Origin: Candidatus Heimdallarchaeum aukensis
Lineage (GTDB): Archaea > Asgardarchaeota > Heimdallarchaeia > Heimdallarchaeales > Heimdallarchaeaceae
Reading direction: 5' to 3'
Assembly (NCBI GenBank): GCA_021513695.1
Contig: CP084166.1
Location: 1,600,001-1,664,000, forward strand
Length of the DNA: 64,000 nucleotides
Shown here: positions 1,174 to 63,735 of the stretch, in pieces
Position numbering within the stretch: the stretch's first letter is position 1
How the letters are laid out: each line of letters opens with the position of its first letter
Made by a program: the position numbers and the translations under genes
Notes under the pieces: model-generated
What the model was told of the DNA's origin: nothing
Databases searched by the model: none
Seen by the model: only the letters and a program-made list of their open reading frames with translations

Positions 1174-2628
1174 CTACTGGGGCTGCAACCAATGGCTGAG
1201 CCCTCGGCAAACAGTGAAATGAGTGAGACTGAATTTCTGACCAGTGAGGTAATCAGTAATGGTGTTACATCGAGGACGGAAAAGATATCCAAGGAACTTA
1301 CGAGCGATATTCATTCCCCTTGTTAGATCAGAATGAAAAGTGTAGTTACAGGAAGAACAATGAACTAACCCTCTAACGGGACGGGAAACTTTCCTCCCGC
1401 AACGAGCACAGTGAGAAGATGTCCCTCTTTCCTCTATTGTTAATATTCGGTGAGATTCAAAGCCTCGAAGTATAAGTGCCCGACGGAGAAGAGAGAGAAC
1501 AAGAGAAAAATTCCACTGATGAAGTTTTCTGCGAAACTTACGATTACTTTTTTCTTTTTCTTTTCCTTCTCGAACATGTTTGGGGTAACCTACAACAACG
1601 AAAAGGTCATACACTTGTGCATAACTCTCTATCGTCTGCACAACATCGCTTATAAATTGGTGAATATACGCGCGTTTAACGTTTCTATACCTCCGACGAA
1701 GAAGACCAAGAAAACGGTAAACTTGGTGCTTTTTACCTAACTGGTCGTTTAAAGCTGCTTTCCTCTGAAGACGGGAAAGTTTGAGTTTATATCTATGATT
1801 GATTCTATTCCACTGTTTAGTATACCAGAATTTTATCTCTTTTTTTGTTAACTTCTTTTTAGGAGTCAGTAACACTCCTGCAGCAGGAATGTTTATCCCT
1901 AGATCTATTCCCAGCACAGCTGGGGGAAGAGAAGAAGAATTATCTCCTTGACTTGTGAGATAAAAGGAAGAAGGAGGAAGAACTTTTAATTGGAAATACA
2001 CCCACCATTCACGTGTAGAACGTTTGTATCTTAGTTCTAGACTTTTCACCCTCCCTTTCTTTAACTCTTTCTGGTGAAAATCGCTCATCTCTAAAGGTAA
2101 CCACAACTTCTGATGATAAGGTGTCTTTCTCTTCCAGGTATCTAACGAGTCTCTTATTCCTACCCACCAACGAGTAAGTGTATTATTCTTCTCTTTTGGT
2201 AGATGGACAAGAATGAACCTTTTTCCATTAATTAATTGCCTTCTTGCTCTCTTTATTGGAGGACGAGTAGGACGGGGTCTATACCCTTGTTCATATAATT
2301 GTACAGCTATATCTCTACACTCTTGGAATTCATTGTGAGAACAATAGGGAAACATTTTCTTCAAGTCGTGAGGAACAGTCTTTCTCCTCTCTTCTTCTTT
2401 TACTCTTGAAGTAGTCAGTGTCAACTCGTCTAATTTTCCTCTATGTACTCTTATTTTCCCTTTTTTTGTTCTTATACTTATTTTTCTTCTGTTGTGGTGT
2501 ATAATTCTCACATATTTTTCTATTATTCTCGTGTCTCTCCCCGTTATTCTCCTTAATCTTTCCTTTTTTCTCGTCGTCAATACCTCATTCTTTATTCTCA
2601 CTTTTAATGTTTTGACGACGTCCTCCAT
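1174..2628 (-). CDS. tnpB: TnpB-like RuvC/zinc-finger nuclease (OrfB of IS605 family)
   Basis: A RuvC-I-like LGIDLGI motif is present. The C-terminal zinc finger reads HCARCG...CSSCNYTFHSDLTRGMNIA (CxxC...CxxC followed by the HSD RuvC-III block). The N-terminus is basic and the protein is 484 aa. Confidence 0.8.
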   Translation of the reverse strand: MEDVVKTLKVRIKNEVLTTRKKERLRRITGRDTRIIEKYVRIIHHNRRKISIRTKKGKIRVHRGKLDELTLTTSRVKEEERRKTVPHDLKKMFPYCSHNEFQECRDIAVQLYEQGYRPRPTRPPIKRARRQLINGKRFILVHLPKEKNNTLTRWWVGIRDSLDTWKRKTPYHQKLWLPLEMSDFHQKELKKGRVKSLELRYKRSTREWWVYFQLKVLPPSSFYLTSQGDNSSSLPPAVLGIDLGINIPAAGVLLTPKKKLTKKEIKFWYTKQWNRINHRYKLKLSRLQRKAALNDQLGKKHQVYRFLGLLRRRYRNVKRAYIHQFISDVVQTIESYAQVYDLFVVVGYPKHVREGKEKEKSNRKFRRKLHQWNFSLVLSLLRRALILRGFESHRILTIEERGTSSHCARCGRKVSRPVRGLVHCSSCNYTFHSDLTRGMNIARKFLGYLFRPRCNTITDYLTGQKFSLTHFTVCRGLSHWLQPQ

Positions 2629-7866: not shown

Positions 7867-8247
7867 ATGTCAATAAGTTTACCACCAGAAAAGAAAAAAG
7901 AATTAATTAAAATATTAAAACAAATTTCACAAGGTTGTGAATTGGAAGCTTTAGCAGTTGTAACAGATGAGGGAATTAAAGTAGCTTTTTTTGCCGAGAA
8001 AAGTGCAGACCCTGATTTACTCAGCGCTGTAAGCTCGGCTGTTCTTTCCACCGGAGAGATGGTTACAAAACAGCTTTCTCACGGTTTTTTGGAACAAGTT
8101 TTAATCCGCGGTGCTAAAGGATTTACTATCTTATCTAATTTAGATCACTATCTTTTAATTGGAGCTTCTAAGGATTTACACAGCGTTGGTTTAGCTATAC
8201 AAGTAATAAGAAGGCATAGCCCCACAATTGCAGAATTGTTAAACTAA
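7867..8247 (+). CDS. Roadblock/LC7 (MglB-like) domain protein
   Basis: This 126-aa protein aligns by eye with the MglB/Roadblock pattern (ALAVVTDEGIKVAFFAE...LLSAVSSAVLSTGEMV...QVLIRGAKGFTILSNLDHYLLIGASKDLHSVGLA). Confidence 0.65.
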   Translation: MSISLPPEKKKELIKILKQISQGCELEALAVVTDEGIKVAFFAEKSADPDLLSAVSSAVLSTGEMVTKQLSHGFLEQVLIRGAKGFTILSNLDHYLLIGASKDLHSVGLAIQVIRRHSPTIAELLN

Positions 8248-8289: not shown

Positions 8290-9291
8290 TTAATAAAAGA
8301 GGAAACTCTTCTCTATTTCCTCTTGGCTAAAGCCAGCATTAATTCCAACAATTATTCTAATAAGATCAGAGATTTCTGCGTATTTCATTTCAAAAAAGGC
8401 AATCAATATTTTAAGATCAGTTGAAGATTTTTGACGAAATATTTTTTTCCATTTTTTGATTTGGAAACGCTCAACAGCAAATTCTATATCATGTAGAGGA
8501 ATATCATCTTTTCCCATGTAGTCAGCGAAGATTCTTTTGTATATTCCAAAATTGTACATGCTTAGGACTTCAGGAATGGAATTTGATTCTAATGCTTTTG
8601 CAATAAATGTTGTTGGTTTAATATAACGATAGGGAGCAATCCCAAGATTAATACATCTACACACCCAAATTATGTTCTTTAAGTTAACGTAGACATCAAA
8701 CTCACGAGAAATTACAGGGAGAATATAATATTCAAATTGATCTATTGCTGCGTCAACTGGTACAAAACGTCCTGTTTTCTGAAATTCAGAATAGCCTTGT
8801 TCTAATAATTGTTTGAAAGTCTGAATTTTTTCTGACTTAATGATATCAGCAATTGATGAGGAGGAAGAAAGAACTTTTTCATAATATTCATAACTGTATC
8901 TTCCAACTGGAGAAATTCTTTCTATTATTTCTTCATGAGGTTGCTTCATAAACAGTCCACGAAGAATATATCGGATATTCTCTGCATGAAATCGTTGGGA
9001 ATGAAGATCAATTATCTTTTTTGCTCTACTTGATCCCTGTTTATAAAAAGTGCTCACAGTTTGAGCAAAATGGTTCTTTAATTGTTTTGCAACTTCTGGC
9101 ATCTCTGTAACAAAATTAATATCTTGAACAATTGGACCATATTGCGTTTGCCGAAAAGCAGCTTGTAGTTCTTTAAGATTAGAAGAGGATAGAAGAAAAT
9201 TTATCTGACTTCGACTAAGTACTTTGCCTATTATTCCATGAGCTCTTCCATATAAATATCCATCTCCTGAGAACATTTCATTCACCAGCAA
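8290..9291 (-). CDS. atpC: A/V-type ATPase subunit C (homologue of eukaryotic V0 d)
   Basis: It lies immediately downstream of subunit I with a 14-nt overlap. The N-terminal pattern YLYGRAHGIIGKVLSRSQINFLL resembles the Y-x-N/R-A-R-V-R start of subunit C/d. Size (333 aa) and helical pattern fit. Confidence 0.55.
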   Translation of the reverse strand: MLVNEMFSGDGYLYGRAHGIIGKVLSRSQINFLLSSSNLKELQAAFRQTQYGPIVQDINFVTEMPEVAKQLKNHFAQTVSTFYKQGSSRAKKIIDLHSQRFHAENIRYILRGLFMKQPHEEIIERISPVGRYSYEYYEKVLSSSSSIADIIKSEKIQTFKQLLEQGYSEFQKTGRFVPVDAAIDQFEYYILPVISREFDVYVNLKNIIWVCRCINLGIAPYRYIKPTTFIAKALESNSIPEVLSMYNFGIYKRIFADYMGKDDIPLHDIEFAVERFQIKKWKKIFRQKSSTDLKILIAFFEMKYAEISDLIRIIVGINAGFSQEEIEKSFLFY

Positions 9292-12200
9292 TAGTTGTGT
9301 ATTGAATAAATTTGGTTTTCTCTAGTAATGGAGTATATTGGACACCTTCCCCTTTGTAGAACTTGGAGAAAAATTCTACCCAATGCAACCTCAGTGTCTG
9401 TAAGAATGAGAACATTCCTTCAATAGGTACAATCACAACAAGTCCCCAAACAATGCCAACAATCCAATAAATCCAAGAGGTAGCTAAAGCAGAGACGTTA
9501 TGGGTATCAACACCAGCTAAAATATATGGAAGACCACTCAAAATTGCATGGACTAGTAACATAGCTAAGATACGGCTAAAGGATAGTGTGTTAGAGAATA
9601 GAGCAATAAGATGATCTATAGCTTCCATAATCCCCTCTGTTCCTTCATGGAGATATTCGAATAGGAAAACTAGAGGAATTGAAACTAAGGCAATAATTGT
9701 AAATATTGTAGAATAGGGTTTTGGAATACTAGGAAGTGCATTTCCACCGATAAGTCGTGAAGTAGCACCAGCACCCATTAAATTATACAATACTGCAAAA
9801 AGTCCTACGTAAAAAATGGAAAGTATAATTGGAGAAATCCATGAAGCTACACCGTGACCGTATTTTTTGTTTTGTATAAATCTTAACCAGATCCCAAGTT
9901 GTATAATTACAAAACCAATAGAAATGGAAAACAATAAGAACAATGGTACTTCTTTTGTAGGCTCAATCAAAGGCAACCATTCAATATGCAAAACGTTTTC
10001 ATAAATATCAGGTAGAAATACTTCATCACCTAGAAGTGCTCCAAATAGGAAACCAAAGATAATTGAAGAAAAACCAGAAAGAGCAAGTAACTCAGAACCT
10101 TTATACAGAAATCCAGACATTGATTCATCAGGTTCAATATTCTTTTTGTTTTTCTTATAAGTTAGAAACAATCCAATCAAGAAGAGAAGTATTCCATGTC
10201 CCACATCAGCGAACATTATACCAAATATCAAGGGAAAAGTAAATTGTATAATTTTGAAGGGGTCTACTTCATGAGTTGAAGGGATACCCATTCCATCAAC
10301 TATTCCTCGAAAAACTTTAGTAACCTTATTCCCATGTTTTGTCATTGAAGGATTCGTTAATGGTACTTTTTGTTTTTCAGACATAGTTATTGGAAAATCC
10401 AATTTTTCGGTTTCTTTCTTTAAGTCTTCAACCCTATCTTTAGGAACCCAACCCCAAATTGTTGTAGTGGTTTCATCAGTTTTACATTTTTCTTCTGTTT
10501 CCAACCTTTTAATTTCTGTTTCTATTAACTCTTCTAGTGCGAAGATTTTGTCTTCTACTTTCTCCCTAATTTCATCCAATTCATGTTCTTTATGTTCTAT
10601 TTCAGTTTGAAGATTCGTGAGCTGACTTTCAATAGATTCTGAAGATATCATGCTATAGTCAATAGATAACAGCTCAAAGGAATATTCTTCTAGAACTTGT
10701 TGTATAGACTTCTTATAATCTATTAGAGACAATATGTAGACAAAGACTGTGTCACTTTTTTCTGGTTGCTCAACCTCAATGAAAATTAATTGCCCATCAG
10801 AAACTTCATTTAGGAAAAACTTTACAGCCTTAACATTCTTTTTTGGGATATTCCCCAAAAAGGTACAAGTTTCAAAATCTGGATCATCCAAGTATGGTTT
10901 AACATCAGAGCTTAAATAGGAATAAATAGGGATATATGCTTCTAATTCTGTTTTCTTCGCTTTTAATTCTTTAAGTTCGGAACTAAGATTTTCTATTTTT
11001 TCTCCATAATCTGCAATAAATTGCTCAACAAAAGATATAGCTTCATCATAGTTATCTTTTACAGCAATCTTAGAATCAGATATTGCTGGAGGAATAGATA
11101 ATCCAAGGGCTTGTTTGTATCTGCTAATTTTGGAAGATAGTAAAGTAAAATTCTGTCTTTTTTGTTTTATGTCGTTTAAAATATCTTCTGACTGTCTTCC
11201 TATCTTTTCTTGATGAAGGATACCAGTGTTATGAATAAAGGAGATTAACTTACGTGTGTGCTCCTTTGGGACTTCCATTTTAACAAACTCTACATCCTTC
11301 GGAAATAAAGCTCCTCCCTTACTGTCACCTAAATGATGATAAGGAGGAATTTCTTTTTCAATTGTTTTTTCTTCTTTCAAAGTCAAAGAACCACGATCCT
11401 TGGAAATTTTTTTAGATTTTTTATATTTCAGAGGAACATCCCTCAATTGAGTGAGTTTAACAGGAAAAGGAAGCTCTTTGAGTTCCTTTTCGAGATTAAG
11501 ATAATCATTAGGTTTAATCCAACCCCAAAGGGTGAAATTAGTTTGAGTTGTTCGACCCTGTTCTAGAATATCAAATAACTCAAGCATGAGATTAATAAAA
11601 GTGAGAAAATGCAAAAGAGTTTCACGATGTTCATCACGCAATTCTGAAATTTGAGATAAAATTTCATCGTGCTTTTCGTGCAGAAAATCATGTACATTAG
11701 CTACTGTAAGCTTGCTAGTTTCTTCATCACTGAACATATCGGCAAAAACAGACAGTTCAAAATCTATTGAAGAAAAATAGAAATTTTCTAGAATAGTCAA
11801 AACTTCATCTTGATATTCCTGGGGGGTGAGAATAAAAACCAAACGAAAATCAGGGTTAGATGATTCAATACTCCAGAAGTAATAAAGACCTTTAGTTATC
11901 TCATCAATATAAAAGGAGATAACTTTCTTATACGAATGATGGATTTCTCCAACGATAGAAAAGGTGGAAGGCCCAGAAGAAAGTAAATCTAAAGGGATAT
12001 CACCAGTCTCAAACTTATGCCGAAAATAATGAAGTTTGTCGGCAATTAGATGCTTCTTTGTTAAAGAATGATTTTCTTCAAAAAGAGAGATAAGAGAAGT
12101 TTCATGTGTATCTAAGAAAGATTTTAGTTCGGAAAGAAATCTAGAAGCATCAAAAACATCAGAGTAGTTTTTTTCTGAATATGAATAAACATCAGAAAGA

Positions 12201-12406
12201 TCTAGACCTAGTTCTTGTGATATGGTAGTAAAACGCTTTAACAAATCAGAAAAAAGCTGGCGATTATCTTCAATTTTAGCCAATTCTGAAGGAGATTGAG
12301 TATCAATTTGAACAAAATCAAAACAATCTAAATAATGTAATTTGGATACAAGAGGAAGGGAGTCGGAGGGTGACACCTGAACCTTTGAAAGTACTCTTTT
12401 TGCCAT
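9278..12406 (-). CDS. atpI: A/V-type ATPase subunit I (a), unusually long with an internally duplicated cytoplasmic N-terminal domain
   Basis: The C-terminal membrane domain carries the conserved-arginine helix SFSRILAMLLVHAILSG (cf. R-L-W-A-L-S-L-A-H-A-Q-L-S), and the FPLIFGIMFADVGHG motif is present. Two copies of a coiled-coil/GW(I/V)(K/P) module (TLWGWIKPNDY around aa 292 and TIWGWVPKDRV around aa 643) give 1042 aa versus the usual 650-700. Confidence 0.8.
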   Translation of the reverse strand: MAKRVLSKVQVSPSDSLPLVSKLHYLDCFDFVQIDTQSPSELAKIEDNRQLFSDLLKRFTTISQELGLDLSDVYSYSEKNYSDVFDASRFLSELKSFLDTHETSLISLFEENHSLTKKHLIADKLHYFRHKFETGDIPLDLLSSGPSTFSIVGEIHHSYKKVISFYIDEITKGLYYFWSIESSNPDFRLVFILTPQEYQDEVLTILENFYFSSIDFELSVFADMFSDEETSKLTVANVHDFLHEKHDEILSQISELRDEHRETLLHFLTFINLMLELFDILEQGRTTQTNFTLWGWIKPNDYLNLEKELKELPFPVKLTQLRDVPLKYKKSKKISKDRGSLTLKEEKTIEKEIPPYHHLGDSKGGALFPKDVEFVKMEVPKEHTRKLISFIHNTGILHQEKIGRQSEDILNDIKQKRQNFTLLSSKISRYKQALGLSIPPAISDSKIAVKDNYDEAISFVEQFIADYGEKIENLSSELKELKAKKTELEAYIPIYSYLSSDVKPYLDDPDFETCTFLGNIPKKNVKAVKFFLNEVSDGQLIFIEVEQPEKSDTVFVYILSLIDYKKSIQQVLEEYSFELLSIDYSMISSESIESQLTNLQTEIEHKEHELDEIREKVEDKIFALEELIETEIKRLETEEKCKTDETTTTIWGWVPKDRVEDLKKETEKLDFPITMSEKQKVPLTNPSMTKHGNKVTKVFRGIVDGMGIPSTHEVDPFKIIQFTFPLIFGIMFADVGHGILLFLIGLFLTYKKNKKNIEPDESMSGFLYKGSELLALSGFSSIIFGFLFGALLGDEVFLPDIYENVLHIEWLPLIEPTKEVPLFLLFSISIGFVIIQLGIWLRFIQNKKYGHGVASWISPIILSIFYVGLFAVLYNLMGAGATSRLIGGNALPSIPKPYSTIFTIIALVSIPLVFLFEYLHEGTEGIMEAIDHLIALFSNTLSFSRILAMLLVHAILSGLPYILAGVDTHNVSALATSWIYWIVGIVWGLVVIVPIEGMFSFLQTLRLHWVEFFSKFYKGEGVQYTPLLEKTKFIQYTTIAGE

Positions 12407-12867: not shown

Positions 12868-14004
12868 ATGGAAGAAATAGTATCTGATAAACCGTTGGTA
12901 ATAGACAACGGAACAGGATTCACAAAAAATGGATTCGCAGGAGAAGATCAACCAAGAAGTGTGTTCCCAACGCTAATAGGTTATCCAAAATACCAAATAA
13001 TAATGACTGATGTTGAACATTACGTAAGAGAATACTATATAGGAGAAGAAGCACTAAACTTGAGAGGAGTGCTCAAACTAGTATACCCAATAGAACATGG
13101 TCAAATAGGTGACTGGGACGCCATGGAAAGAATCTGGCATTACACCTTCTATAACGACCTTAGAGTTAATCCTAACGAGCATCCTATTTTGCTCACCGAA
13201 CCTCCTCTTAACAAGAATGTCAACAAGGAAAAGATGGCCGAATTAATGTTTGATACCTTTAATGTTCCTGCTATGTATATTAGCATGCAAGCTATTCTTT
13301 CGCTTTATGCTTCTGGTCGTACTACAGGTATTGTAGTCGACAGTGGTGATGGTGTTACACACATCGTTCCTGTTTACGAAGGTTTTGCAATTAGTCATGC
13401 TATTCGCAGAGCTGATATTGGTGGTCGTGATATTACTGACTATCTACGTCGTCTATTAAGACAAAGAGGATATTCCTTAACCAGCAGTGCAGAACGAGAA
13501 ATTGTTCGTGACATTAAGGAACGTCTTTGTTACGTAGCTTTAGATCCTGAAAAAGAACTCAAACTTGCTGAGAAAGTTTCTGGTATGGAAAAGACTTACA
13601 CCTTGCCAGATGGTGAAACTCTAAGCATTGGCGCTGAGCGCTTTATGGCTCCTGAATTGTTCTTCAATCCTGGTGCCATCGGTTCTGAAGAACTTCCTTT
13701 GGATGAACAGATCTATCAAGCTATCACTGATTGTGATGTCGATCTTCGTAGAGATCTTTATTCCAACATTGTTCTTTCTGGTGGATCCACCATGTTCCCA
13801 GGTTTGAAGGAGAGATTACACAAGGAACTTACTGAACTAGTCCCCGAAACTATGGAGGTTAAGATTATCGCTCCACCAGAACGTCGTTACAGTGTTTGGA
13901 TAGGAGGAAGCATCCTCAGTAGTCTTAAGACCTTTACCAAACTTTGGGTGACTAAGAAAGAGTATAAAGAAACTGGTCCTACCGCAGTTTATCGTTGTAT
14001 CTAA
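12868..14004 (+). CDS. actin (eukaryote-like, Asgard 'Lokiactin'-type)
   Basis: The protein aligns along its whole length to eukaryotic actin. Matching blocks include [84 protein letters not shown] and [19 protein letters not shown]. Confidence 0.95.
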
Positions 14005-14185: not shown

Positions 14186-15124
14186 TTGTTGGACGTCAAT
14201 TTACTCAGATCTTATTTATCTGAGCCTAACTATCGCGCTGTTTTATCGGAGATTATACATTCCCATCGTAGCCGTTCTATTGACGAACTTTCTTCTCTTT
14301 TTCCTTCTTTAACTAGTAACTACTCTTTAACTAAAATTTTGAAGAAGTTTGTAGATATAGGTATTATTAAAAGCAAGAAAATTTCCCTTGGTTCTCAAGA
14401 GCGTGAATTTTATTTTCCCAATCGGGAACTTTTACGAAGTAATTTTTATCAAGATTTGCTTTTAGAATATGAAGATCTAAATTATCCAGCCAAACTAGAT
14501 CTGGAATTTACTTATCTTTGGGAAGATTGGCCTCAGTGCCTTGTTGATAATGGTTCTTTAACCCTGTATATTGTCACCAGTACTTATTTACCTGAAAATG
14601 TAGATATTTCACACCTAACAAAGCTTCTTACTGTTTGGGCTTTAAAATATGCAAAACTATCTATTGAAAACATTCATATTTCTAATATTGTTGATATTAA
14701 AGCAACACCAGTTAAAACTAATAATCTAATAGTTATTGGTTCTGGAGAAGTCAACAAGGTTACTGCCGATATTTTATCTCTTTATGGTGACTCTTTACCT
14801 ATTCGTTTTCAATCTAAATCAATATATAGTTCCTTGACTTCCAAAAATTATTCTTCTACAAAAGGTTCTATTGTAGGTTTACTTCCAAATCCCTGGAATC
14901 CTAGCAAAATTGCTTTAATCTGTTCTAGTATGAGTTATTTTGGAACTAATATTTCACTTAAAGCTTTAATTGATGATCTTGATTCAATTATCCATCAAGA
15001 ACCCAGAATTTTATCTAATCACTCTGTTTATTCTGAAATCCCCATTCGTGTTCTTGCATCAGAAGAAAACAACAAGAATAAAGAAAAACTTGAAGGACTG
15101 AAATCTTACACTTTCAAAGAATGA
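14186..15124 (+). CDS. hypothetical protein, possible N-terminal winged-helix; TTG start
   Basis: This is a 312-aa ORF with no internal Met for about 250 residues. The N-terminal region (SIDELSSLFPSLTSNYSLTKILKKFVDIGIIKSKK) looks wHTH-like. No recognisable catalytic motifs. Confidence 0.35.
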   Translation: MLDVNLLRSYLSEPNYRAVLSEIIHSHRSRSIDELSSLFPSLTSNYSLTKILKKFVDIGIIKSKKISLGSQEREFYFPNRELLRSNFYQDLLLEYEDLNYPAKLDLEFTYLWEDWPQCLVDNGSLTLYIVTSTYLPENVDISHLTKLLTVWALKYAKLSIENIHISNIVDIKATPVKTNNLIVIGSGEVNKVTADILSLYGDSLPIRFQSKSIYSSLTSKNYSSTKGSIVGLLPNPWNPSKIALICSSMSYFGTNISLKALIDDLDSIIHQEPRILSNHSVYSEIPIRVLASEENNKNKEKLEGLKSYTFKE

Positions 15125-17875: not shown

Positions 17876-19801
17876 ATGGTAGAAGTAAAAGTAAAATTAC
17901 CTGATAACAACGAGATTACCATTGAAAAGGGTAAAACAGTATTGGATTTAGCCAATAAAATAAGCCCTAATTTAGCAAAAGCATCTTTAGCAGCAAAAGT
18001 AGATGATAAATTAGTGGATCTTACTTACCCAATTGAACAAGATTGCAAAGTAGAATTAATTACAGCCAGATCAGATGAAGCTTTTCATATTCTAAATCAC
18101 AGTGCGGCTCACGTATTAGCTAGTGCTGTCGTCGAATTGTTTCCTGAAGCGAAGCCAACTATTGGACCCTCTGTTGATGAGGGATTTTATTACGATTTCG
18201 AGGTAAAAAAGCCCTTTTCTCAAGAGGATTTGGAAAAAATAGAAAAGAAAATGATAGAGATAATAGAAGAAGATACTCCGTTTATTAGAGAAGAAGTTCC
18301 AATTCAAGAAGCCATTAAGTACTATAAAACAGTTGAAAAAAACAAATTCAAAGTAGAAATATTGGAAGAGATGCCAGATGTTGGCACCGTTTCTTTTTAC
18401 TCTCATCGAAACGGTAAATTCAAAGATCTTTGTAGAGGACCACATGTTCCATCAACGAAAAAAATTAAAGCTGTAAAAGTGTTAAACGCTTCTTCTGCAT
18501 TCTGGAGAGGAGATGCAAAAAGAGAATCTCTTCAACGAGTATATGGTATTGCTTTTACTGACGCTAAAAAACTAAAGAAGCACTTGAAAATGCTTGAAGA
18601 AGCAAAGAAACGTGATCATAGAATTTTAGGTCCTCAACTTGACCTATTCGATACTGCAGATGAATGGGGGCCTGGGATGCCATTAATCTATCCTAAAGGC
18701 ACAATCCTTCTAGATACAATCAAAGAGTTTTGGAAAAAAGAACACAAAAAAGCAGGGTATAAGGTTGTTCAAACTCCTCATCTGTTCAAAGAGATAGTTT
18801 GGAAAACGAGTGGGCATCTAGACTACTACATTGAAAACATGTATCCAGTTGACGCTAGAGGTGAACGTTGGTATGTTAAACCTATGAATTGTCCAGGACA
18901 TATGATGATCTTTAATAGAAAAACATATTCCTACAGAGAATTACCTGAAAAAATTGCAGAAATGGGTACTGTATATAGATACGAACTTTCAGGAGTACTT
19001 CATGGTTTATTCAGAATTCGAGGTTTTACCCAAGATGATAGTCACATTTTCATGCTTCCGGAGCAACTAGAAGACGAGATAGTAAAGATTATTGAAATGG
19101 TTAATCATTTTTATAAAGTGTTTGGATTCAAAGAGTGGGAATTTTTCATTAGTACAAGACCAGAGAAGTCTATTGGAACTGACGAAGGCTGGGAACACGC
19201 CACCAAATCTTTAATGAATGCTATAGAAAGAGTTGGAATCAAATACAAGGTTAAGCAAGGAGATGGAGCTTTCTATGGACCAAAGATTGATGTTGATGTT
19301 AAAGATGCAATTGGAAGACGTTGGCAATTAGCAACTATACAAGTAGATTTTAACTTACCTGAGAGATTTGATATAAATTACATAGGAGAAGATGGTCAAA
19401 AACATAGACCATTTGTTATTCACAGAGTCATATACGGTGCCTTAGAACGGTTTTTAGCTATATTAGTCGAGCATTATGCAGGAAAATTGCCAATATGGTT
19501 GAGCCCTGTACAAGCAATTGTTATTCCTATTACTGATGAACATATAGAATATGCAAAAATGGTTGCAACGGCACTTGATAATGAAGGAATTAGAGCAGAA
19601 GCTGATCTTTCTGGAGAGCGAATGGAGTACAAAATAAGACAAGCTACTCTTCAAAAAATACCTTACATTATTAACGTTGGTGGAAAAGAAATAGAGAACA
19701 ACACTATAGCTGTTCGTGATCGAACAAATAAAGTAAGATTTGGCGTTAAGATTGAAGAATTCGTTAAAGAAGTCAAAGAAAAAATAGCAAATTATGAATA
19801 A
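17876..19801 (+). CDS. thrS: threonyl-tRNA synthetase
   Basis: An N-terminal TGS-like domain is followed by a class II core (FRIRGFTQDDSHIF, HRVIYGALERF). The protein is 641 aa. Confidence 0.9.
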   Translation: MVEVKVKLPDNNEITIEKGKTVLDLANKISPNLAKASLAAKVDDKLVDLTYPIEQDCKVELITARSDEAFHILNHSAAHVLASAVVELFPEAKPTIGPSVDEGFYYDFEVKKPFSQEDLEKIEKKMIEIIEEDTPFIREEVPIQEAIKYYKTVEKNKFKVEILEEMPDVGTVSFYSHRNGKFKDLCRGPHVPSTKKIKAVKVLNASSAFWRGDAKRESLQRVYGIAFTDAKKLKKHLKMLEEAKKRDHRILGPQLDLFDTADEWGPGMPLIYPKGTILLDTIKEFWKKEHKKAGYKVVQTPHLFKEIVWKTSGHLDYYIENMYPVDARGERWYVKPMNCPGHMMIFNRKTYSYRELPEKIAEMGTVYRYELSGVLHGLFRIRGFTQDDSHIFMLPEQLEDEIVKIIEMVNHFYKVFGFKEWEFFISTRPEKSIGTDEGWEHATKSLMNAIERVGIKYKVKQGDGAFYGPKIDVDVKDAIGRRWQLATIQVDFNLPERFDINYIGEDGQKHRPFVIHRVIYGALERFLAILVEHYAGKLPIWLSPVQAIVIPITDEHIEYAKMVATALDNEGIRAEADLSGERMEYKIRQATLQKIPYIINVGGKEIENNTIAVRDRTNKVRFGVKIEEFVKEVKEKIANYE

Positions 19802-19814
19802 TTTTTTATATTTT

Positions 19815-20960
19815 TTATTTTTCTTTAAATAGTTCAACAATTGTTTTGAACAACAAATTTGAATAAGTCACGACCTCATCCTTTAATGTATATTCATCAG
19901 TCACATGTAATTTATCCAATCTACCAGGACCAAAAATCACAAAATCAGTATTGTTAGGTGGAACCAATACTGCACCATCTGTACCGTAGGTAACACCTAT
20001 TACTTCCAAAATGCCTTTTTCTTTGAGTTTTTCTTTTAATTTGTCTAAAAATGCTATTTCTGAATTTGATTCAATTGGAGGAATAACATGTACTTCTTCA
20101 AACTCTGCTCGTGCATCCTCTTTAGAATTAAACTGATCTAATACTCTATTTATTTTCATTCTTATTTCATTATAATCGACAGAAGGAACAACTCTATAGT
20201 CTAGAGTAAATTCACAATATTCAGGAACAACGTTGAAAGAAGTCCCCCCGCTTATTTTACCAATATTAAGAGTTGAGTTGTTTAAAAGAGGATGCTTAGT
20301 TGATGGTATAGTTTTCTTAATTTTGGCTATTAATTCAGCAGCTTTCTCTATAGCATTAACTCCCAACTCAGGAGTTGAGCCATGAGCTGACTTGCCGTAT
20401 ACCTTTATTTTTGCCCAATATACACCTTTTTGAGCTATTGAAAGTTTTAATTCTGTTGGCTCACCTATTATAAGAAAGTGAGTCGAATCCATTATATCAG
20501 TGTTTAAAGCAGCTTTAGCACCCCCCATTCCTACTTCTTCATCACTTGTTATTAACAACTTAATTTTTTTTGTTAACTTTATGTTCTTTTCTTTTAATTT
20601 TAACAAAATTGCTATATATGACGCAATAGAGCCTTTCATGTCTGTTGCTCCTCGCCCATATATTCGTCCATTATGCTCAATCCCTTCAAAAGGATTAAAA
20701 GTCCATTTTTCTTCATCTCCAGGGGGAACAACATCAATATGTCCACATAGTACTATGCTTTCTTTACCAGATCCATATTCCGCAAAAAGATTGGCTCGAT
20801 CTTCTGAATACTTTTGAATTTCACATTGTATGCCTTTTTCAGAAAGAATTTTTTTCACATAATTAATCGCGTTTATTGTTTTTCCAGGAGGATTTACTGT
20901 TTTAAACTGGATGAGTTTTTGCAATATTGGAATTACTTCTTTTTCTTTTATTTCATTCAT
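19815..20960 (-). CDS. M20-family metallopeptidase (ArgE/DapE-like deacylase)
   Basis: LCGHIDVVPPGD, GRGATDMKG and the Glu-rich SDEEVG block are present. Confidence 0.7.
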   Translation of the reverse strand: MNEIKEKEVIPILQKLIQFKTVNPPGKTINAINYVKKILSEKGIQCEIQKYSEDRANLFAEYGSGKESIVLCGHIDVVPPGDEEKWTFNPFEGIEHNGRIYGRGATDMKGSIASYIAILLKLKEKNIKLTKKIKLLITSDEEVGMGGAKAALNTDIMDSTHFLIIGEPTELKLSIAQKGVYWAKIKVYGKSAHGSTPELGVNAIEKAAELIAKIKKTIPSTKHPLLNNSTLNIGKISGGTSFNVVPEYCEFTLDYRVVPSVDYNEIRMKINRVLDQFNSKEDARAEFEEVHVIPPIESNSEIAFLDKLKEKLKEKGILEVIGVTYGTDGAVLVPPNNTDFVIFGPGRLDKLHVTDEYTLKDEVVTYSNLLFKTIVELFKEK

Positions 20961-21139
20961 TATTGTTCTTGAGGAATTGAAGCCCCTTCTATAAAATTTT
21001 TTTCTATTGATGTTCTTTAGATTCTCAATGTTTTAAAAACGAAAATTTGCACCTAAAAATAAGATACTTGTAATCAAATTTTCCAGATATTACATTCATT
21101 TTAAAAACCCCTCATAATTGTGTTGTTGGTTGAACCATC

Positions 21140-22558
21140 TTGTTAGTATTATCAAGTTGTCAATATTGTGGTAATAAAGCTCAATATTATTGTACAAATT
21201 GTGGAAAATTACTATGTTCAGAACATGCGACTGAAGCCCACACAGTCTACTATTGTAAAAACTGTGATTTAGAAGTGTATGAAAAGCAATGTCACAAGTG
21301 TGGAAACAAAACAGAATTTTCTAGAAATGATAATGTTCTCCTGTGCGAATGGTGCAAAACTCCTACAGTAGTAGATGGCTATGCCTATCATCAACAATTA
21401 CCTGAAAAAATATTTAGTTCAATACTTAGAATAAATAAAAAGATAGCTGATTTGCTTTACCTAACAGATAGATATCACAAATTAGTTGACGAAATTCTAA
21501 AAGTGCGATATGCTAAAATAAAATTATTTCCAGAAATTGAAGATGATCTCTCCATTCTAAGAACAAAAATAGACAACTTAATCAAAAAACTAAGAATCAT
21601 CAGTGATAGCTTATTTTTGAAAATAAACAAAAAGTTACAATCATTAAACTACCTTAGATCCCCAAACTTAAACAACCTTGAACCAGCTGAAGAATTAATC
21701 AATTATTTAGACAAAAACTATGAATCTTTAGGATATAGCTTACATTTAAAAATTGAGCAAATAGAAGAATACTTTGCCTCCATTGGCAAAAAAGTTGATT
21801 TTCTGAATTATCAATATACTCTTTTGAAGATAATATACCGACTTATTCCTGAAGTTGAAGGAGAGGAATTAATTGCTATCATTCCTAGAATGTGGATAAA
21901 AAAAAGTTATAAGCTCCCTAAGCGTCATGTTTTTGTTTTAACAAACAAGAACATCTACCTCTTAAGAGAAAAAGGCCTATTTCGTACAATGTTAAAATTA
22001 AAAGAGAAAATCGATCTCTCTAATGTAAGATTAGTTTCAGAATCCCAAACATTATTGAAAGGAAAGGTTGTAAAAATTTCAACATTACTTTCACAATATT
22101 CATTGTTTGGTAGAGATATAGCTATTTCAGAGTTATCAAAATATTTCAGTATCTATTATGAATACTTCAAATATTCTACAAGTGACCTCACAGTAATTAA
22201 TGAATTTAAATATTATAATTTATCTGTAAAAGATTTACGAGAAGCAATAAATAAATACCTCAACAACCTCCGTGTTTCTCTTCTTAAAAAGAGAGAAATA
22301 AAAAGAGAAATAATGTATAAAAATAGTTTAGTAGCAAGACGACAGCAGATATTACAACGATTAGCAAATATAAGACGTAAAATCCAAGAAATAACGCAAT
22401 CTAGAACAGGAAGATATCAAAGTCCTAAAGTTTTCAACAACCTGTTACAGAGACTTATGGAAGAGCAATCTCGTTTAGAAAAAGAAATAAGAATAAATGA
22501 CGCAAAAATCAGAGAGATAGATGAATTGTGGGGTGTTTTTTATGATCAAGTTTCTTAA
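21140..22558 (+). CDS. hypothetical protein with N-terminal B-box-like zinc fingers, a bPH-like segment and a C-terminal coiled coil
   Basis: The first finger reads CQYCGNKAQYYCTNCGKLLCSEHATEAH (C-x2-C-x7-C-x2-C-x4-C-x2-H-x4-H), and a second CxxC...CxxC...CxxC cluster follows. The mid-region HVFVLTNKNIYLLREKGLF...KIDLSNVRLVSESQTLLKGKV resembles bacterial PH (bPH_2) domains. The start is TTG. Confidence 0.4.
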   Translation: MLVLSSCQYCGNKAQYYCTNCGKLLCSEHATEAHTVYYCKNCDLEVYEKQCHKCGNKTEFSRNDNVLLCEWCKTPTVVDGYAYHQQLPEKIFSSILRINKKIADLLYLTDRYHKLVDEILKVRYAKIKLFPEIEDDLSILRTKIDNLIKKLRIISDSLFLKINKKLQSLNYLRSPNLNNLEPAEELINYLDKNYESLGYSLHLKIEQIEEYFASIGKKVDFLNYQYTLLKIIYRLIPEVEGEELIAIIPRMWIKKSYKLPKRHVFVLTNKNIYLLREKGLFRTMLKLKEKIDLSNVRLVSESQTLLKGKVVKISTLLSQYSLFGRDIAISELSKYFSIYYEYFKYSTSDLTVINEFKYYNLSVKDLREAINKYLNNLRVSLLKKREIKREIMYKNSLVARRQQILQRLANIRRKIQEITQSRTGRYQSPKVFNNLLQRLMEEQSRLEKEIRINDAKIREIDELWGVFYDQVS

Positions 22559-23913: not shown

Positions 23914-24846
23914 ATGAGTAACTTACCATTAGAATTTCCTTTGTATCTTAGTAATATTTCAGTAAAAGAAAAAGACACTCCAGAATTAGTTTTAACTTAT
24001 GAGGGAGATGAAACCCTTGTTGATAAATTGCTTCTAATTGGGAAGAATAATGGCTTACCTGACAACATTAATGCGGCCTTACCTTTTGAGCAAAAGAAAG
24101 TAAAAGGGAGAGTAGTTTTTGAGATTACTATCCCTATTTATGAGGACGGAGAATTTCAAGCTGTTGTGGAGTATGAAGACGAATATATTTATGAACCAGG
24201 GCAAGCTCATAATATAGTCTTTAGAGGTAAAGGTATTTTTTTGGATTTCAGAAAAATATTCCATCTTCAAAAAGAAGTTGTAAGACCAAAAGGAGCACCT
24301 AAACCTACCAAAAAAGAAACAGAACTCGAGGAAAAAATTGAAATTAAGAAAGAAGAGGATAAGCTTACTCCGTCTATTGAAAAGAAGAAAGATTTGACTC
24401 CTATTGCGGATAAAGATAACCTGCTAAAGGTTCAGCCTAAGGATTTTAGAAACTTTGATGAAAACCTTAAAACAAAACTTCTTCAGATATTGGATTATTT
24501 AGCAAATGAAAAAAGTAAAAAACTTGTTCTTGACACCATTATTCTGCCAGATATCTCTAGAACACTCAAAAGGCTAATTCTAGAAGAAATGAGGAAAAGC
24601 GTCTACGAAGCATGTTTTCCTGTAATTGTGTTGATCGAGAAGGCTCTGATATTAGGTGGTATGGTTTTTCAAGCTGTTTTTACTGATGAAACATTTGAAG
24701 AATATAAAAAAGAGGTTGTAGAAAAAATCCCAAAAATAAAAGAAAAAATCAATAGAATTGAGTTTGAACCCACAAATACTATGATAAAAGTAAAATACGA
24801 TAAAGACAAGCATTCATTTAAGAAAATGTTATATCATCAGATATAA
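23914..24846 (+). CDS. hypothetical protein
   Basis: This 310-aa ORF has a K/E-rich linker and no recognisable motifs. Confidence 0.35.
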   Translation: MSNLPLEFPLYLSNISVKEKDTPELVLTYEGDETLVDKLLLIGKNNGLPDNINAALPFEQKKVKGRVVFEITIPIYEDGEFQAVVEYEDEYIYEPGQAHNIVFRGKGIFLDFRKIFHLQKEVVRPKGAPKPTKKETELEEKIEIKKEEDKLTPSIEKKKDLTPIADKDNLLKVQPKDFRNFDENLKTKLLQILDYLANEKSKKLVLDTIILPDISRTLKRLILEEMRKSVYEACFPVIVLIEKALILGGMVFQAVFTDETFEEYKKEVVEKIPKIKEKINRIEFEPTNTMIKVKYDKDKHSFKKMLYHQI

Positions 24847-30246: not shown

Positions 30247-31545
30247 TCACGAAGGAGAGTTTAGATTAGGCGAACCGGTCATAGAGCCAGAGGAGAGAGT
30301 TGATAAACCCTCGACCACGGAAACTGGAAAAAAGAACTTTTTCCGCTCACGTGGGACAGGAAAATAAGAAAAAAAGGAAGAAGAGAGAGGGAGAGGAAGA
30401 GAACCAAAAAAGAGAAGAGAAAGGTTGCGAGAGGCGTTGCGGTCAGAGTGAACTTCAAAACCACAAGAAACGCAACGAAAAAGGTCACGAGTGACACGGG
30501 AGGAAGGAGAAACGTGACCGCAACGAGAGCAACGTTGACTGGTATAATGAGGGGGGACAGGAAGAACAGGAATATGCTTTTCTTCAGCAAGAGAGGTCAA
30601 GAAAGAGAGGAAAAAGCGATAAGACCAGCGGTTGAGAGAGCGACGAATACGTTCTCTTCCTCTAAAATTCTTTTTAGTCCATTTTTTTCTTATTTTACTA
30701 ATTTCTTCAATTACTATCGCAGAGCGTGTAACTACTGCTAAATCTACAATCTCGTGAGCTATTTGCTCACATCGGGTTTTGTTATAATTTTTTTCTTTAT
30801 TTTTCAATCTTTTTAACGCACGCCGTGCTTTTTCACTTCCTTTATCAGCATACGATTGTAGCTTTCTTCTTCTTTCATTAAACTTATGTTGTTTCCAGGC
30901 AAGATCTTTTCCGAGGTAACGTTCAATTAGAGTAAAAGAGGGATGATTAAGTGTTATTGCGGCAGCTATCTTTCTACCTACGTCTACTCCTATCGTTCCT
31001 TCTACTTGTTGAGGAGGAAAAAGGTTAAGTTCTTTACGTAAAATTATGTGCTCTACCCACTTTCTTTCCCGTTTAAAGACTTTACAACTATGCTCTTTCC
31101 ATCCTTCTCTGCGGTATGCTTCTACTCTTCTCCATCCTCCATCTAGTTTGATAGGTATAGCTATCCTTTCTTTCATCGGAGAAATAGCTAAAACAGGGTT
31201 CCCTCTCTCTGTTTCTTTTATTCCTCCACTCCTGGGAAAGTTGAACTCCAACGGTAAATTATCGAACTTTTTCACTTTCCTTGCCGCATAAACTCTTCTC
31301 TGTACCGCTTCTTGCACTTGACTGTGTAACTTCACATATTTGAACCTCTTATATACTAAATGATGGAACTCTTTTCCTGATTTCGCTTTTTCCTTGAACA
31401 CTATTATTTTATTTGCCATCTCTGTCGCTTTTTTCTGTGCTCTCTGCATGTATGCTCTTTTTCTTCTACTCGGGAGAATATTCACTTTTACTGTTTTTTC
31501 TTTCCACTTCCTTTTCTTTCCTTTTCTTCTCCCTTTCGTTTTCAT
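30247..31545 (-). CDS. tnpB: TnpB-like RuvC/zinc-finger nuclease
   Basis: RuvC-I reads IGVDVGRK and RuvC-II reads AIVIEEISK. The zinc finger reads CSRCGHVS...FRCVSCGFEVHSDRNASRNL. The K/R-rich N-terminus and low-complexity C-terminal tail probably reflect read-through of the low-complexity ends. Confidence 0.8.
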   Translation of the reverse strand: MKTKGRRKGKKRKWKEKTVKVNILPSRRKRAYMQRAQKKATEMANKIIVFKEKAKSGKEFHHLVYKRFKYVKLHSQVQEAVQRRVYAARKVKKFDNLPLEFNFPRSGGIKETERGNPVLAISPMKERIAIPIKLDGGWRRVEAYRREGWKEHSCKVFKRERKWVEHIILRKELNLFPPQQVEGTIGVDVGRKIAAAITLNHPSFTLIERYLGKDLAWKQHKFNERRRKLQSYADKGSEKARRALKRLKNKEKNYNKTRCEQIAHEIVDLAVVTRSAIVIEEISKIRKKWTKKNFRGRERIRRSLNRWSYRFFLSFLTSLAEEKHIPVLPVPPHYTSQRCSRCGHVSPSSRVTRDLFRCVSCGFEVHSDRNASRNLSLLFFGSLPLPLSSSFFSYFPVPRERKKFFFPVSVVEGLSTLSSGSMTGSPNLNSPS

Positions 31546-62727: not shown

Positions 62728-63180
62728 CTATTCATATATCCATTCTTCATCTATTTTTTGATACTGAACAAATTCTTCTTCATCAAAATAGATAGAATAT
62801 TCAATTTTTGCATTTTCTGGTGAGTCACCAGCATGAATTATATTACGTCCAATTTCTAATGCAAAATCTCCTCGTATTGTACCTGGTTGAGCATCAACAG
62901 GATCTGTAGCTCCGACTATTTTACGTGTTAATTTAACAGCATTTTTTCCTTCAACAACCATTGCTACTACAGGACCGCTAGTTATATATTCAATTAAGCC
63001 TTCATAAAATGATTTTCCTTTATGAATAGCATAATGTTCTTCTGCCATTTTTTTGGTTAATTGGAGCATTTTTAGACCAATAATTTTTAGCCCTACACGC
63101 TCAATGCGTTTGATAACATCACCAATTAATCCTCGCTGAACACCATCAGGTTTTATCATGATAAATTCTCGTTCCATATT
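62728..63180 (-). CDS. ndk: nucleoside diphosphate kinase (start at MEREF..., not the track's 63219)
   Basis: EREFIMIKPDGVQRGL and NIIHGSD-type NIIHAGDS are present. The protein is about 150 aa. Confidence 0.9.
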   Translation of the reverse strand, partial: NMEREFIMIKPDGVQRGLIGDVIKRIERVGLKIIGLKMLQLTKKMAEEHYAIHKGKSFYEGLIEYITSGPVVAMVVEGKNAVKLTRKIVGATDPVDAQPGTIRGDFALEIGRNIIHAGDSPENAKIEYSIYFDEEEFVQYQKIDEEWIYE

Positions 63181-63306
63181 AACACCAAAATCGAAAAAGT
63201 ATAAGGAAATAAAAAACATTCGATTAAGTTTTAAATTACATTATTAGAAAATTACTAAAAATAGGATAAAAACAAACGAAAAACAGTTTAGAAAGAAAGA
63301 AAAGAA

Positions 63307-63495
63307 TTAGAAAATTTTCTTTTCGTATTTAGTTGTATATTTTAGTTTTTTGGGGTCTCGCTTGAAGTCAAGATTTGATCTTTTACATTTATTACTACAA
63401 AAATGTAAAACGTTTCCAGTGCGTTGAACATATAATAAACCTTGACCATGGGGAATTTCTTTTCCGCAAAATGAACAAGTTCGTGTTTTTGGCAT
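63307..63495 (-). CDS. rpl24e: 50S ribosomal protein L24e
   Basis: MPKTRTCSFCGKEIPHGQGLLYVQRTGNVLHFCSNKC is the L24e zinc-ribbon signature. Confidence 0.85.
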   Translation of the reverse strand: MPKTRTCSFCGKEIPHGQGLLYVQRTGNVLHFCSNKCKRSNLDFKRDPKKLKYTTKYEKKIF

Positions 63496-63505
63496 ATTTT
63501 GTCAC

Positions 63506-63721: not shown

Positions 63722-63735
63722 TCTTAATCACCAAA

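Follow-up and report, generated by a model that had tools for sequence, protein, structure and literature searches.

To our knowledge, the only prokaryotic homologues of ESCRT-I and ESCRT-II are those of the Asgard archaea. The Asgard ESCRT machinery must reach the membrane with no ESCRT-0, GLUE or phosphoinositide system of the eukaryotic kind, and an ESCRT-linked PH protein is an obvious candidate for that link. A family of this kind has been described as Znr_CC_PH_SB (also Znr_PH_CC_SB; asCOG cog.011556), an Asgard-specific, computationally proposed ESCRT-I component (Makarova et al., mBio 2024, PMC10936438). In its published Lokiarchaeum GC14_75 member, the gene lies just downstream of ribosomal protein L35Ae and is followed by Snf7 on the opposite strand (PMC10936438). 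Here we describe a member from the Heimdallarchaeia, a group placed close to eukaryotes (PMC8813620, PMC10307638). The family and the ESCRT proposal were known beforehand; what is added is a compact, divergent Heimdallarchaeial version, clade-specific evidence from gene neighbourhoods for a link to ESCRT, and the caution that a steadiness box cannot be assumed in the Heimdall clade. The current picture is unchanged by these findings.

Two eukaryotic systems are useful for comparison. Like the present protein, the ESCRT-I subunits Vps23/TSG101 and Vps37 have a long stalk of helices and, after it, a helical hairpin at the C-terminus; however, our protein has no UEV domain, its own hairpin is not matched by theirs, and its helices, at about 40 and 36 residues, exceed theirs in length. 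The ESCRT-II subunit Vps36/EAP45 consists of a GLUE PH domain, NZF zinc fingers (in yeast) and two EAP30-family winged helices, whereas our protein lacks EAP30, and its zinc module is N-terminal and B-box/ribbon-like rather than of the NZF type inserted in the PH domain.

The window analysed here is a stretch of 64,000 nucleotides from Candidatus Heimdallarchaeum aukensis. The open reading frame at 21140-22558 is a real gene: its product is identical to K9W45_06945, a hypothetical protein at NCBI (100% identity across 100% of the length), and full-length orthologues are kept, with identities to K9W45_06945 of 63, 58, 41, 37 and 37%. The TTG start, which an earlier note on this DNA had already assigned, is the sole possible one: an in-frame stop stands two codons before it, and from there to the conserved Cys7 there is no alternative start codon. 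The two closest orthologues also have non-ATG starts, TTG in one (L001) and GTG in the other (L002). At both of these loci the upstream motif recurs 32-46 nt before the start in the form GATATTACATT[CT][AC]TTTTAAAA, and the motif is probably a BRE/TATA promoter element. A scan of the protein against NCBIfam gave no meaningful match, and searching solved structures with the single sequence returned weak zinc-finger noise and nothing else. The features of the locus are listed in the table.

Table. Features of the K9W45_06945 locus (nucleotide positions in the window)
Feature	Residues	Positions	Strand	Description
Whole gene		21140..22558	+	472 aa, TTG start, TAA stop; K9W45_06945 of Ca. Heimdallarchaeum aukensis
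Upstream motif GATATTACATTCATTTTAAAAA (probable promoter element)		21086..21107	+	conserved; ends 32 nt before TTG
Eight-ligand zinc module (predicted)	7-42	21158..21265	+	C-x2-C-x7-C-x2-C-x4-C-x2-H-x9-C-x2-C; ligands conserved in 32 members
Third zinc site (predicted)	51-72	21290..21355	+	C-x2-C-x14-C-x2-C, zinc-ribbon type; four Cys invariant (32/32)
Stalk / coiled-coil region	80-235	21377..21844	+	AlphaFold2 helices 80-124, 131-168, 177-235
Family signature R-x6-LFPEIEDDL	123-137	21506..21550	+	turn between helices 1 and 2
PH domain	244-351	21869..22192	+	seven beta-strands and C-terminal helix
Linker helix	363-381	22226..22282	+	last segment alignable with Loki-type members (hhalign ends at residue 377)
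Arg/Gln-rich helical hairpin	384-464	22289..22531	+	AlphaFold2 helices 384-423, 429-464; pLDDT 76-88

Judged by profile comparison and gene order, K9W45_06945 is a divergent Heimdallarchaeial member of Znr_CC_PH_SB, cog.011556. A profile built from five Heimdall-clade sequences retrieved 52 representatives, with matches that start at the first Cys and end near residue 380, and hhalign joined the Heimdall clade to the Loki clade at 99.4% (E 1.2e-21, 367 columns, residues 5-377). A second, word-indexed homology search with a 43-sequence alignment yielded nothing beyond seven proteins already found. The Loki-type sequences in the hhalign comparison include relatives of the Ca. Lokiarchaeum ossiferum member. 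In L. ossiferum, the family gene follows closely on that of ribosomal protein L35Ae, and Snf7 comes after it on the other strand, which is the GC14_75 arrangement; this common gene order ties the family to the published cog.011556. The three zinc-binding motifs at the N-terminus (zinc ribbons in the published description), the coiled coil and the PH domain are all present in the order expected of Znr_CC_PH_SB, and the restriction to Asgard archaea is also shared. The association with ESCRT genes holds for three members of the Heimdall clade and four Loki-type members, but not in the window or in the two closest relatives. The multi-domain protein was thus wrongly called novel in the earlier note, since its architecture has been published under this name (PMC10936438). 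Its placement in an Asgard setting was correct: the organism is Heimdallarchaeum aukensis, and the named family members, a minority of the matches, are all Asgard (Heimdall-, Prometh(Loki)-, Thor- and Jordarchaeal), with no non-Asgard name among them. In addition, a profile of the Heimdall orthologues gives about 50 representatives, Asgard only, that share this architecture. The note did not see the tie to ESCRT, the central biological point. Compared with other Znr_CC_PH_SB proteins, those of the Heimdall clade are compact (about 470 aa versus 580-840 aa), lack the long Q/N/P-rich linker, have His rather than Cys as ligand 6, and end in a hairpin that cannot be recognised as a steadiness box.

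All the cysteines of the protein (11/11) fall within residues 1-72, in the pattern C7-x2-C10-x7-C18-x2-C21-x4-C26-x2-H29-x4-H34 followed by C39-x2-C42, C51-x2-C54 and C69-x2-C72; the finger and the further CxxC pairs are exactly as first described. C7, C10, C18, C21, C26, C39, C42, C51, C54, C69 and C72 are invariant in 32/32 family members, and residue 29 is His in the clade of our protein and Cys in every other clade. These 11 invariant cysteines plus H29 make 12 ligand positions, which is enough for three zinc ions. H34 can be rejected as a zinc ligand because the position is variable even among the closest orthologues (T, N or K), and the last ligand pair of the zinc module is most likely C39/C42, as the conservation pattern indicates.

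Residues 7-42 would form a B-box1- or RING-cross-brace-like module that is predicted to hold two zinc ions. The first six ligands have B-box type 1 spacing, the conserved last pair being C39-x2-C42 and not His, and AlphaFold2 gives a pLDDT of 78-88 over the module. Pfam zf-B_box (PF00643) scores 20.8 bits on our protein, under its gathering threshold of 24.1, and ANCHR-like_BBOX (PF22586) scores 21.2 bits, under its threshold of 27; B-box matches, again sub-threshold, occur in 11/43 family members, with a best E-value in the family of 4.4e-4. The family profile of the module matches RING and PHD structures as well as the B-boxes of TRIM, KAP1 and PML. In a Foldseek search the PML B1-box ranked first among compact-domain matches (E 0.25, probability 0.82, TM 0.50), although the eIF2-gamma chain 1kjz received the same probability (0.82). 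The description of the finger as B-box-like was therefore essentially right, apart from the sub-threshold Pfam score and the last pair, which had been placed on histidine. The third zinc site weakly resembles the zinc ribbons of the ribosomal proteins eL37 and uS14.

A helical region of 155 residues, absent from the earlier note, separates the fingers from the PH domain. Its 3.5-residue periodicity is stronger than that of all 2000 shuffles, and residues 80-235 align throughout the whole family. Within the family signature, R123 does not vary and E134 shows conservation of at least 90% among 43 members, and again among 30 members. Against solved structures, a profile of the region matched designed or viral coiled coils only and identified no specific relative.

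The segment in the middle of the protein has a true PH fold. It had been likened to bPH_2, and here the fold stands but the family does not: bPH_2 (PF03703) has no match to our protein at E <= 10, and it is missing from the 25 Pfam families listed for 43 members (E <= 0.01), where bPH_3 and GRAM appear instead. A structure prediction lacking a PH-like fold had been named as grounds for abandoning this description; this was tested, and the outcome favours a PH fold. Weak Pfam matches are to Myosin_TH1 in our protein and to bPH_3, GRAM and Vps36-GLUE in its relatives. The best sequence-level matches of the family PH profile are bacterial PH structures of bPH_1/DUF1696 (3dcx and 3hsa, E 2e-4), and bPH_3 is matched in 11/43 family members, whereas our protein itself has no bPH match; bacterial PH proteins, unlike it, are small and stand-alone or membrane-anchored. 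A specific assignment as GLUE was rejected, because generic PH domains outscore GLUE and the Pfam GLUE family (PF11605) has no match in our protein. The PH surface is strongly basic, and the beta1-beta2 loop (WIKKSYKLPKRH) is basic.

The C-terminal 100 residues, noted at the outset as heptad-patterned and rich in Arg and Gln, bear out that description and are modelled as a helical hairpin: Arg reaches 14% and Gln 9%, against 6.1% and 4.0% in the whole protein, and the 3.5-residue hydrophobic periodicity lies above 99.85% of shuffles. The hairpin occupies the place that the ESCRT-I steadiness box has in other clades. The C-terminal profile of the Loki, Thor and Jord members matches yeast Vps23 core structures (E 2.6e-7) and TSG101 (E 1.1e-5), Pfam Vps23_core is found in 6/43 family members, and an intermediate clade is linked to the Loki/Thor/Jord profile at 96%. 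For the clade of our protein, hhalign gave a weak but in-register alignment of the hairpin to the family steadiness box (34.7%, E 4e-4); its alignment to the intermediate clade reached 5.6%, eukaryotic ESCRT-I cores gave none, and there was no Vps23 or TSG101 match. Nor is there similarity between our hairpin and the canonical box kept in the Heimdall UEV-Vps23-Vps28 fusion. As far as profile comparison can tell, the hairpin of this clade is unrecognisable as a steadiness box. In one Promethearchaeal family member (P0058), EAP30 stands where the steadiness box would be (44.7 bits versus a threshold of 26.8).

The most constant neighbour of the family is Snf7, which lies within 4 kb in 7/10 loci with enough flank. 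Loki-type members have a Snf7 gene within 0.04-3.6 kb at 4/4 loci. In the clade of our protein, three members more distant from K9W45_06945 lie about 1 kb (P0079 and P0085) or 3.9 kb (P0010) from a Snf7-Snf7-Vps4-Vps25-EAP30-UQ_con/Vps28 cluster, and at the first two loci ThiF (E1) and ubiquitin follow beyond the ESCRT cluster within the available flanks. Orientation is unlike between two of these three loci. H. aukensis and its two closest relatives (L001 and L002) have no ESCRT gene within 8-10 kb of the gene, and none turned up in the window when its ORFs of 90 aa or longer were checked (apart from five short ones at the window edges or overlapping other genes); the neighbours of K9W45_06945 are housekeeping genes. 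A downstream DegT aminotransferase and a conserved protein of about 310 aa were considered as functional partners and rejected, since the synteny holds in the three closest genomes only, with insertions, and is absent from three further loci (L012, L013 and L014).

We consider it reasonably probable that K9W45_06945, as the Heimdallarchaeial Znr_CC_PH_SB, acts as a membrane adaptor of the ubiquitin-ESCRT remodelling machinery. In this mechanism, the strongly basic PH domain would dock the protein on the membrane, and the helices would serve as a stalk or oligomerisation element like the ESCRT-I stalk. The zinc module, by analogy with the yeast Vps36 zinc fingers, may contact a protein such as ubiquitin, a UEV/E2-like domain or the Vps28 C-terminal domain. 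The C-terminal hairpin could pack on those of the Heimdall UEV-Vps23-Vps28 fusion, or on another ESCRT subunit, and this packing would deliver the complex to the membrane before ESCRT-III and Vps4. The EAP30 fusion ties the module to ESCRT once again. On the other hand, the adaptor role is weakened by a hairpin unlike a steadiness box and by the lack of ESCRT genes near the gene in H. aukensis and its two closest relatives.

It is unlikely, though worth weighing, that the protein is CdvA-like and not an ESCRT-I subunit: the PH domain would bind the membrane, and the protein itself would recruit ESCRT-III of Vps20/Snf7 type, bypassing ESCRT-I and -II. That Snf7, and neither Vps23 nor Vps28, is the neighbour found most regularly, and that it is the sole nearby ESCRT gene at the four Loki-type loci is consistent with such a role, as are a weak Pfam CdvA coiled-coil match in a Jordarchaeial member (E 0.0059), the published resemblance of the CdvA hairpin to the steadiness box (Makarova et al. 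2024, PMC10936438), and the divergence of our hairpin from that box. However, outside the Heimdall clade the C-terminus specifically matches Vps23/TSG101 cores, the module that assembles ESCRT-I; no ESCRT-III-binding motif was identified; and the Heimdall loci adjoin a complete cluster, so that neighbourhood cannot separate the partners.

We give a still lower probability to repurposing within the genus Heimdallarchaeum, in which the steadiness box diverged, the gene left the ESCRT cluster, and the protein became a membrane-associated coiled-coil scaffold of general use, with no relation to ESCRT. The unrecognisable box and the housekeeping surroundings in the window and ESCRT-free flanks at L001 and L002 would suit this. 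However, the same divergent C-terminus is found in clade members that still lie beside the ESCRT cluster, which indicates that the hairpin diverged before the gene moved and that the linkage survived this divergence. Furthermore, the genes flanking the L012 locus (ProRS, Roadblock, V-ATPase, aminotransferase, EamA and phosphomutase) reappear in the window, reshuffled, beside TnpB-like genes, which points to plain genome rearrangement.

Equally improbable is a role as TRIM-like scaffold in the ubiquitin system of Asgard archaea, with a B-box/RING-like zinc module that self-associates or binds E2, a coiled coil that dimerises and a PH domain that selects substrate or membrane: C-x2-C-x7-C-x2-C-x4-C-x2-H equals the first six B-box type 1 ligands and a long coiled coil follows, as in TRIM/RBCC proteins, but no RING precedes it, the last pair is C-x2-C at x9 and not H...H, and the Pfam scores are sub-threshold.

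There is also a wider proposal, which we regard as a long shot: the zinc-finger/coiled-coil/PH module might be the archaeal forerunner of the N-terminal half of eukaryotic Vps36 (GLUE plus zinc fingers), the half that binds membrane and ubiquitin. The family would then provide a bridging subunit able to join ESCRT-I by way of a steadiness box or ESCRT-II by way of EAP30 winged helices. If this were true, the third type of C-terminus in the Heimdall clade would mark a further docking mode in a lineage near eukaryotes. Under the same proposal, P0058 is a natural example of the module joined to an ESCRT-II-type EAP30.

The protein encoded by the target ORF is, as judged from profile comparisons, a divergent Heimdallarchaeial member of the published, computationally defined Znr_CC_PH_SB family. 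With this protein as query, a word-indexed homology search recovered no more than seven close relatives; profile searching, done exhaustively with the alignment of the Heimdall clade (cut-off E <= 1e-3), yielded 52 representatives of 436-836 aa, the matches running from the first Cys up to approximately residue 380. The family alignment keeps the target's order of parts, and where the first helix turns it has the motif R-x6-[LF]-[FHY]-P-x-[IL]-E, with R123 invariant and E134 near-invariant. Members with names are Heimdall-, Prometh(Loki)-, Thor- and Jordarchaeal. Makarova et al. (mBio 2024, PMC10936438) define Znr_CC_PH_SB (cog.011556) by three zinc ribbons, a coiled coil, a PH domain and a steadiness box, and regard it as specific to Asgard archaea and probably ancestral to that phylum, calling it 'a likely ESCRT-I component' whose PH domain is 'expected to be membrane associated'; contrary to the earlier note, the protein is thus not novel. 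Their Lokiarchaeum GC14_75 member follows ribosomal protein L35Ae, two genes before Vps20, and this arrangement is shared by the member from Ca. Lokiarchaeum ossiferum, with L35Ae, the gene itself, and Snf7 downstream on the opposite strand. This arrangement, together with the hhalign comparison of the Heimdall and Loki clades (99.4% probability, E 1.2e-21, target residues 5-377), ties the target directly to the family. The family would be familiar to a specialist, and the target overturns no current view.

The N-terminus contains exactly the Cys/His pattern first noticed by eye, C7-x2-C10-x7-C18-x2-C21-x4-C26-x2-H29-x4-H34, followed by C39-x2-C42, C51-x2-C54 and C69-x2-C72, but H34 is not conserved, the closest orthologues having T, N or K there. 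All 11 cysteines of the target lie within residues 1-72, and each is kept in every one of 32 family members; position 29 is His in the target clade and Cys in all others, which looks like a typical ligand swap in the alignment. This conservation gives 12 ligand positions, sufficient for three zinc ions. Ligands 1-6 have B-box type 1 spacing, and the first eight close with a CxxC pair. Against Pfam, the target scores below threshold for both zf-B_box (20.8 bits; threshold 24.1) and ANCHR-like_BBOX (21.2; 27), and the zf-B_box match recurs in 11 of 43 relatives. Among solved structures, the family profile matches cross-brace fingers (RNF4 RING, RING2/BMI1, PHF21A PHD, and the B-boxes of TRIM2, KAP1 and PML), with E-values inflated by cysteine richness. 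Foldseek with the full AlphaFold2 model places the PML B1-box top among few compact-domain matches (E 0.25, probability 0.82, TM 0.50), a probability equalled by an eIF2-gamma chain (1kjz). Given the ligand spacing, the sub-threshold Pfam scores and these matches, the best reading of the region, described in PMC10936438 as three zinc ribbons, appears to be a 'B-box-like cross-brace plus one zinc ribbon', which agrees with the B-box-like finger proposed earlier.

The full-length AlphaFold2 model, built from a five-sequence alignment (pLDDT 63.9), is reliable in the zinc region and along three long helices (80-124, 131-168 and 177-235) and poor for residues 240-360. Residues 236-352 were modelled separately with a 41-sequence alignment that included distant relatives (pLDDT 90.6, pTM 0.82), and the PH-like beta-sandwich sought there is present: seven beta-strands and then a C-terminal helix, residues 244-351. 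The family PH profile matches the bacterial PH structures 3dcx and 3hsa (E 2e-4) and BBS5 (0.057), and Pfam gives bPH_3 hits in 11 and GRAM hits in 2 of 43 members; the module anticipated in the earlier note is borne out as a PH fold, although the family it named, bPH_2, is not matched. The domain is strongly basic (20 K/R vs 8 D/E), as is the beta1-beta2 loop, WIKKSYKLPKRH, whose character is kept clade-wide. The C-terminal 100 residues, described from the outset as Arg/Gln-rich and heptad-patterned, indeed contain 14% Arg and 9% Gln with a heptad-type periodicity exceeding that of 99.85% of shuffles, and are modelled as a helical hairpin (384-423 and 429-464). Overall, what the earlier note read from raw sequence proves remarkably accurate.

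Whether this hairpin is a steadiness box was addressed by profile comparison. Six of 43 members match Pfam Vps23_core at the extreme C-terminus, and the C-terminal profile of Loki, Thor and Jord members matches the ESCRT-I core structures of yeast Vps23 (E 2.6e-7) and human TSG101 (1.1e-5). The target-clade C-terminal profile found no Vps23, TSG101 or Vps37 match among solved structures, nor did hhalign against the eukaryotic cores. Its match to the family box is weak (34.7%, E 4e-4), with the turn 'TGRYQSPKVF' in register over 'G-x-I-S-x-x-E-Y'; an intermediate clade scores 5.6% against the target clade and 96% against the family box. A Heimdall UEV-Vps23-Vps28 fusion, encoded beside the family gene in a related genome, retains a canonical box (84% against the family profile, 0% against that of the target clade). 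The fourth module is thus not demonstrable from sequence in the target's clade, and the hairpin would either descend from a steadiness box with strong divergence or have replaced one.

Housekeeping genes surround the target: upstream of it are ThrRS and an M20 peptidase, and downstream a DegT aminotransferase, a protein of ~310 aa and NAD kinase. No ESCRT gene occurs among the checked ORFs of at least 90 aa in the 64-kb window, a scan covering all but five short ORFs (38-538, 19463-19840, 20500-20817, 62728-63219 and 63375-63746), and the two closest relatives (58-63% identity) have the same context without ESCRT genes nearby. Distant target-clade members (34-37% identity), which have the same C-terminal type, adjoin a complete cluster, Snf7-Snf7-Vps4-Vps25-EAP30-UQ_con/Vps28, followed in L012 and L013 by a ThiF (E1) gene and ubiquitin; the L014 flank stops inside the UQ_con/Vps28 gene. 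L012 and L013 differ in how the gene is oriented with respect to the cluster. The other flank of L012 shares with the window ProRS, Roadblock, V-ATPase subunits, aminotransferase, EamA and phosphomutase, which in the window are reshuffled and adjoined by two TnpB-like genes. The simplest reading is that the gene ancestrally lay beside the ESCRT cluster and was separated in Heimdallarchaeum by rearrangement.

Locations of the target, its upstream motif and other features (L001 and L002, orthologous loci of the two closest relatives; L004 and L012-L014, loci of further members)
Feature	Location	Strand	Remarks
Target ORF	window 21140..22558	+	472 aa
Motif GATATTACATT[CT][AC]TTTTAAAA	window 21086-21107		non-coding; common to L001, L002 (upstream of position 8001)
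TnpB/Cas12f-like ORF	window 1174-2628	-	Cas12f1-like_TNB domain
TnpB/Cas12f-like ORF	window 30247-31545	-	Cas12f1-like_TNB domain
Roadblock/LC7	window 7867-8247	+	
V-type ATPase AC39	window 8290-9291	-	
V-type ATPase I	window 9278-12406	-	
Asgard actin	window 12868-14004	+	Pfam Actin, 441 bits
ORF after actin	window 14186-15124	+	312 aa, no Pfam match
~310-aa protein	window 23914-24846	+	no Pfam match
P0058/P0042	L004 10001-11806		601 aa; Promethearchaeota MAG JBHLPL010000001.1
P0079	L012		~1 kb from ESCRT cluster
P0085	L013		~1 kb from ESCRT cluster
P0010	L014		402 aa; 3.9 kb from ESCRT cluster
Uncalled stretch	L014 9329-10000		~670 nt, upstream of P0010
Small gene pair	L012 11446-12196		
Small gene pair	L013 9135-9878		
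Small gene pair	L001 3917-4656		

In eukaryotes, a PH domain and zinc fingers occur in Vps36, and a stalk and hairpin in Vps23/Vps37; the target unites features divided among these proteins. Membership in these families was rejected, as the target has no GLUE-specific similarity, UEV or EAP30, and its B-box scores are below threshold. By analogy, it may work like an accessory of ESCRT-I or ESCRT-II, and we regard an 'ESCRT-linked membrane adaptor, ESCRT-I-like' as rather probable. Beyond the domain composition, homology and neighbourhood, which are observed, we infer that the basic PH domain would bind membrane, the helices would provide a stalk or mediate oligomerisation, the zinc module would make a protein contact (by analogy with yeast Vps36 zinc fingers, candidates are ubiquitin, a UEV/E2-like domain or the Vps28 C-terminal domain), and the hairpin would dock on an ESCRT subunit. 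A CdvA-like direct recruiter of ESCRT-III seems unlikely, even though Snf7 is the most constant neighbour (0.04-3.6 kb off in 4 of 4 Loki-type loci). We give still less credence to a ubiquitin-system scaffold built, like TRIM proteins, from a B-box and a coiled coil, and as little to loss of the ESCRT role in the genus Heimdallarchaeum, which is weakened because the divergent C-terminus also occurs in members still adjoining the cluster.

A separate case is P0058/P0042, in which the zinc-finger/coiled-coil/PH module is fused to a C-terminus that is genuinely EAP30 (Vps22/36 winged-helix) and takes the place of the steadiness box (one of 43 members; 44.7 bits vs threshold 26.8, with a near-threshold Vps36 GLUE match). 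By its sequence it is an archaeal protein of Vps36-like architecture, and the 2024 ESCRT survey was not found to mention this combination in its text. Its gene is followed at 0.6 kb by a Snf7 gene and preceded at 7-9 kb by an EAP30-Vps28-UEV cluster.

From end to end the target product is identical to hypothetical protein K9W45_06945 (NCBI, 3.08-Mb contig of Candidatus Heimdallarchaeum aukensis), labelled 'B box-type ...' in UniRef; the window thus comes from an Asgard archaeon, as the earlier note supposed. The TTG start read initially is borne out, being the sole start codon ahead of the conserved Cys7, with an in-frame stop two codons upstream; L001 and L002 likewise use non-ATG starts, TTG and GTG respectively. 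The upstream motif lies 32-46 nt 5' of the non-ATG start in all three loci, whose proteins are only 58-63% identical, and is probably a promoter, comprising a BRE/TATA element and an additional conserved upstream element. P0010 keeps only the last CxxC of the zinc region; its start may be miscalled, or the gene disrupted upstream.

One of the TnpB/Cas12f-like ORFs lies at the edge of a gene block rearranged relative to related genomes, and these ORFs may be mobile elements behind the lost synteny with the ESCRT cluster. The Roadblock/LC7, AC39 and I genes, which adjoin one another, also flank the target's orthologues in L002 and L012. The aminotransferase and ~310-aa protein form a pair kept in three Heimdallarchaeum-like genomes (310, 323 and 309 aa) and not seen in the more distant L012-L014. 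The small gene pair beside the orthologues encodes a 124-130-aa protein and an ATP-synt_C proteolipid, and in L012 and L013 lies between the orthologue and the ESCRT cluster.
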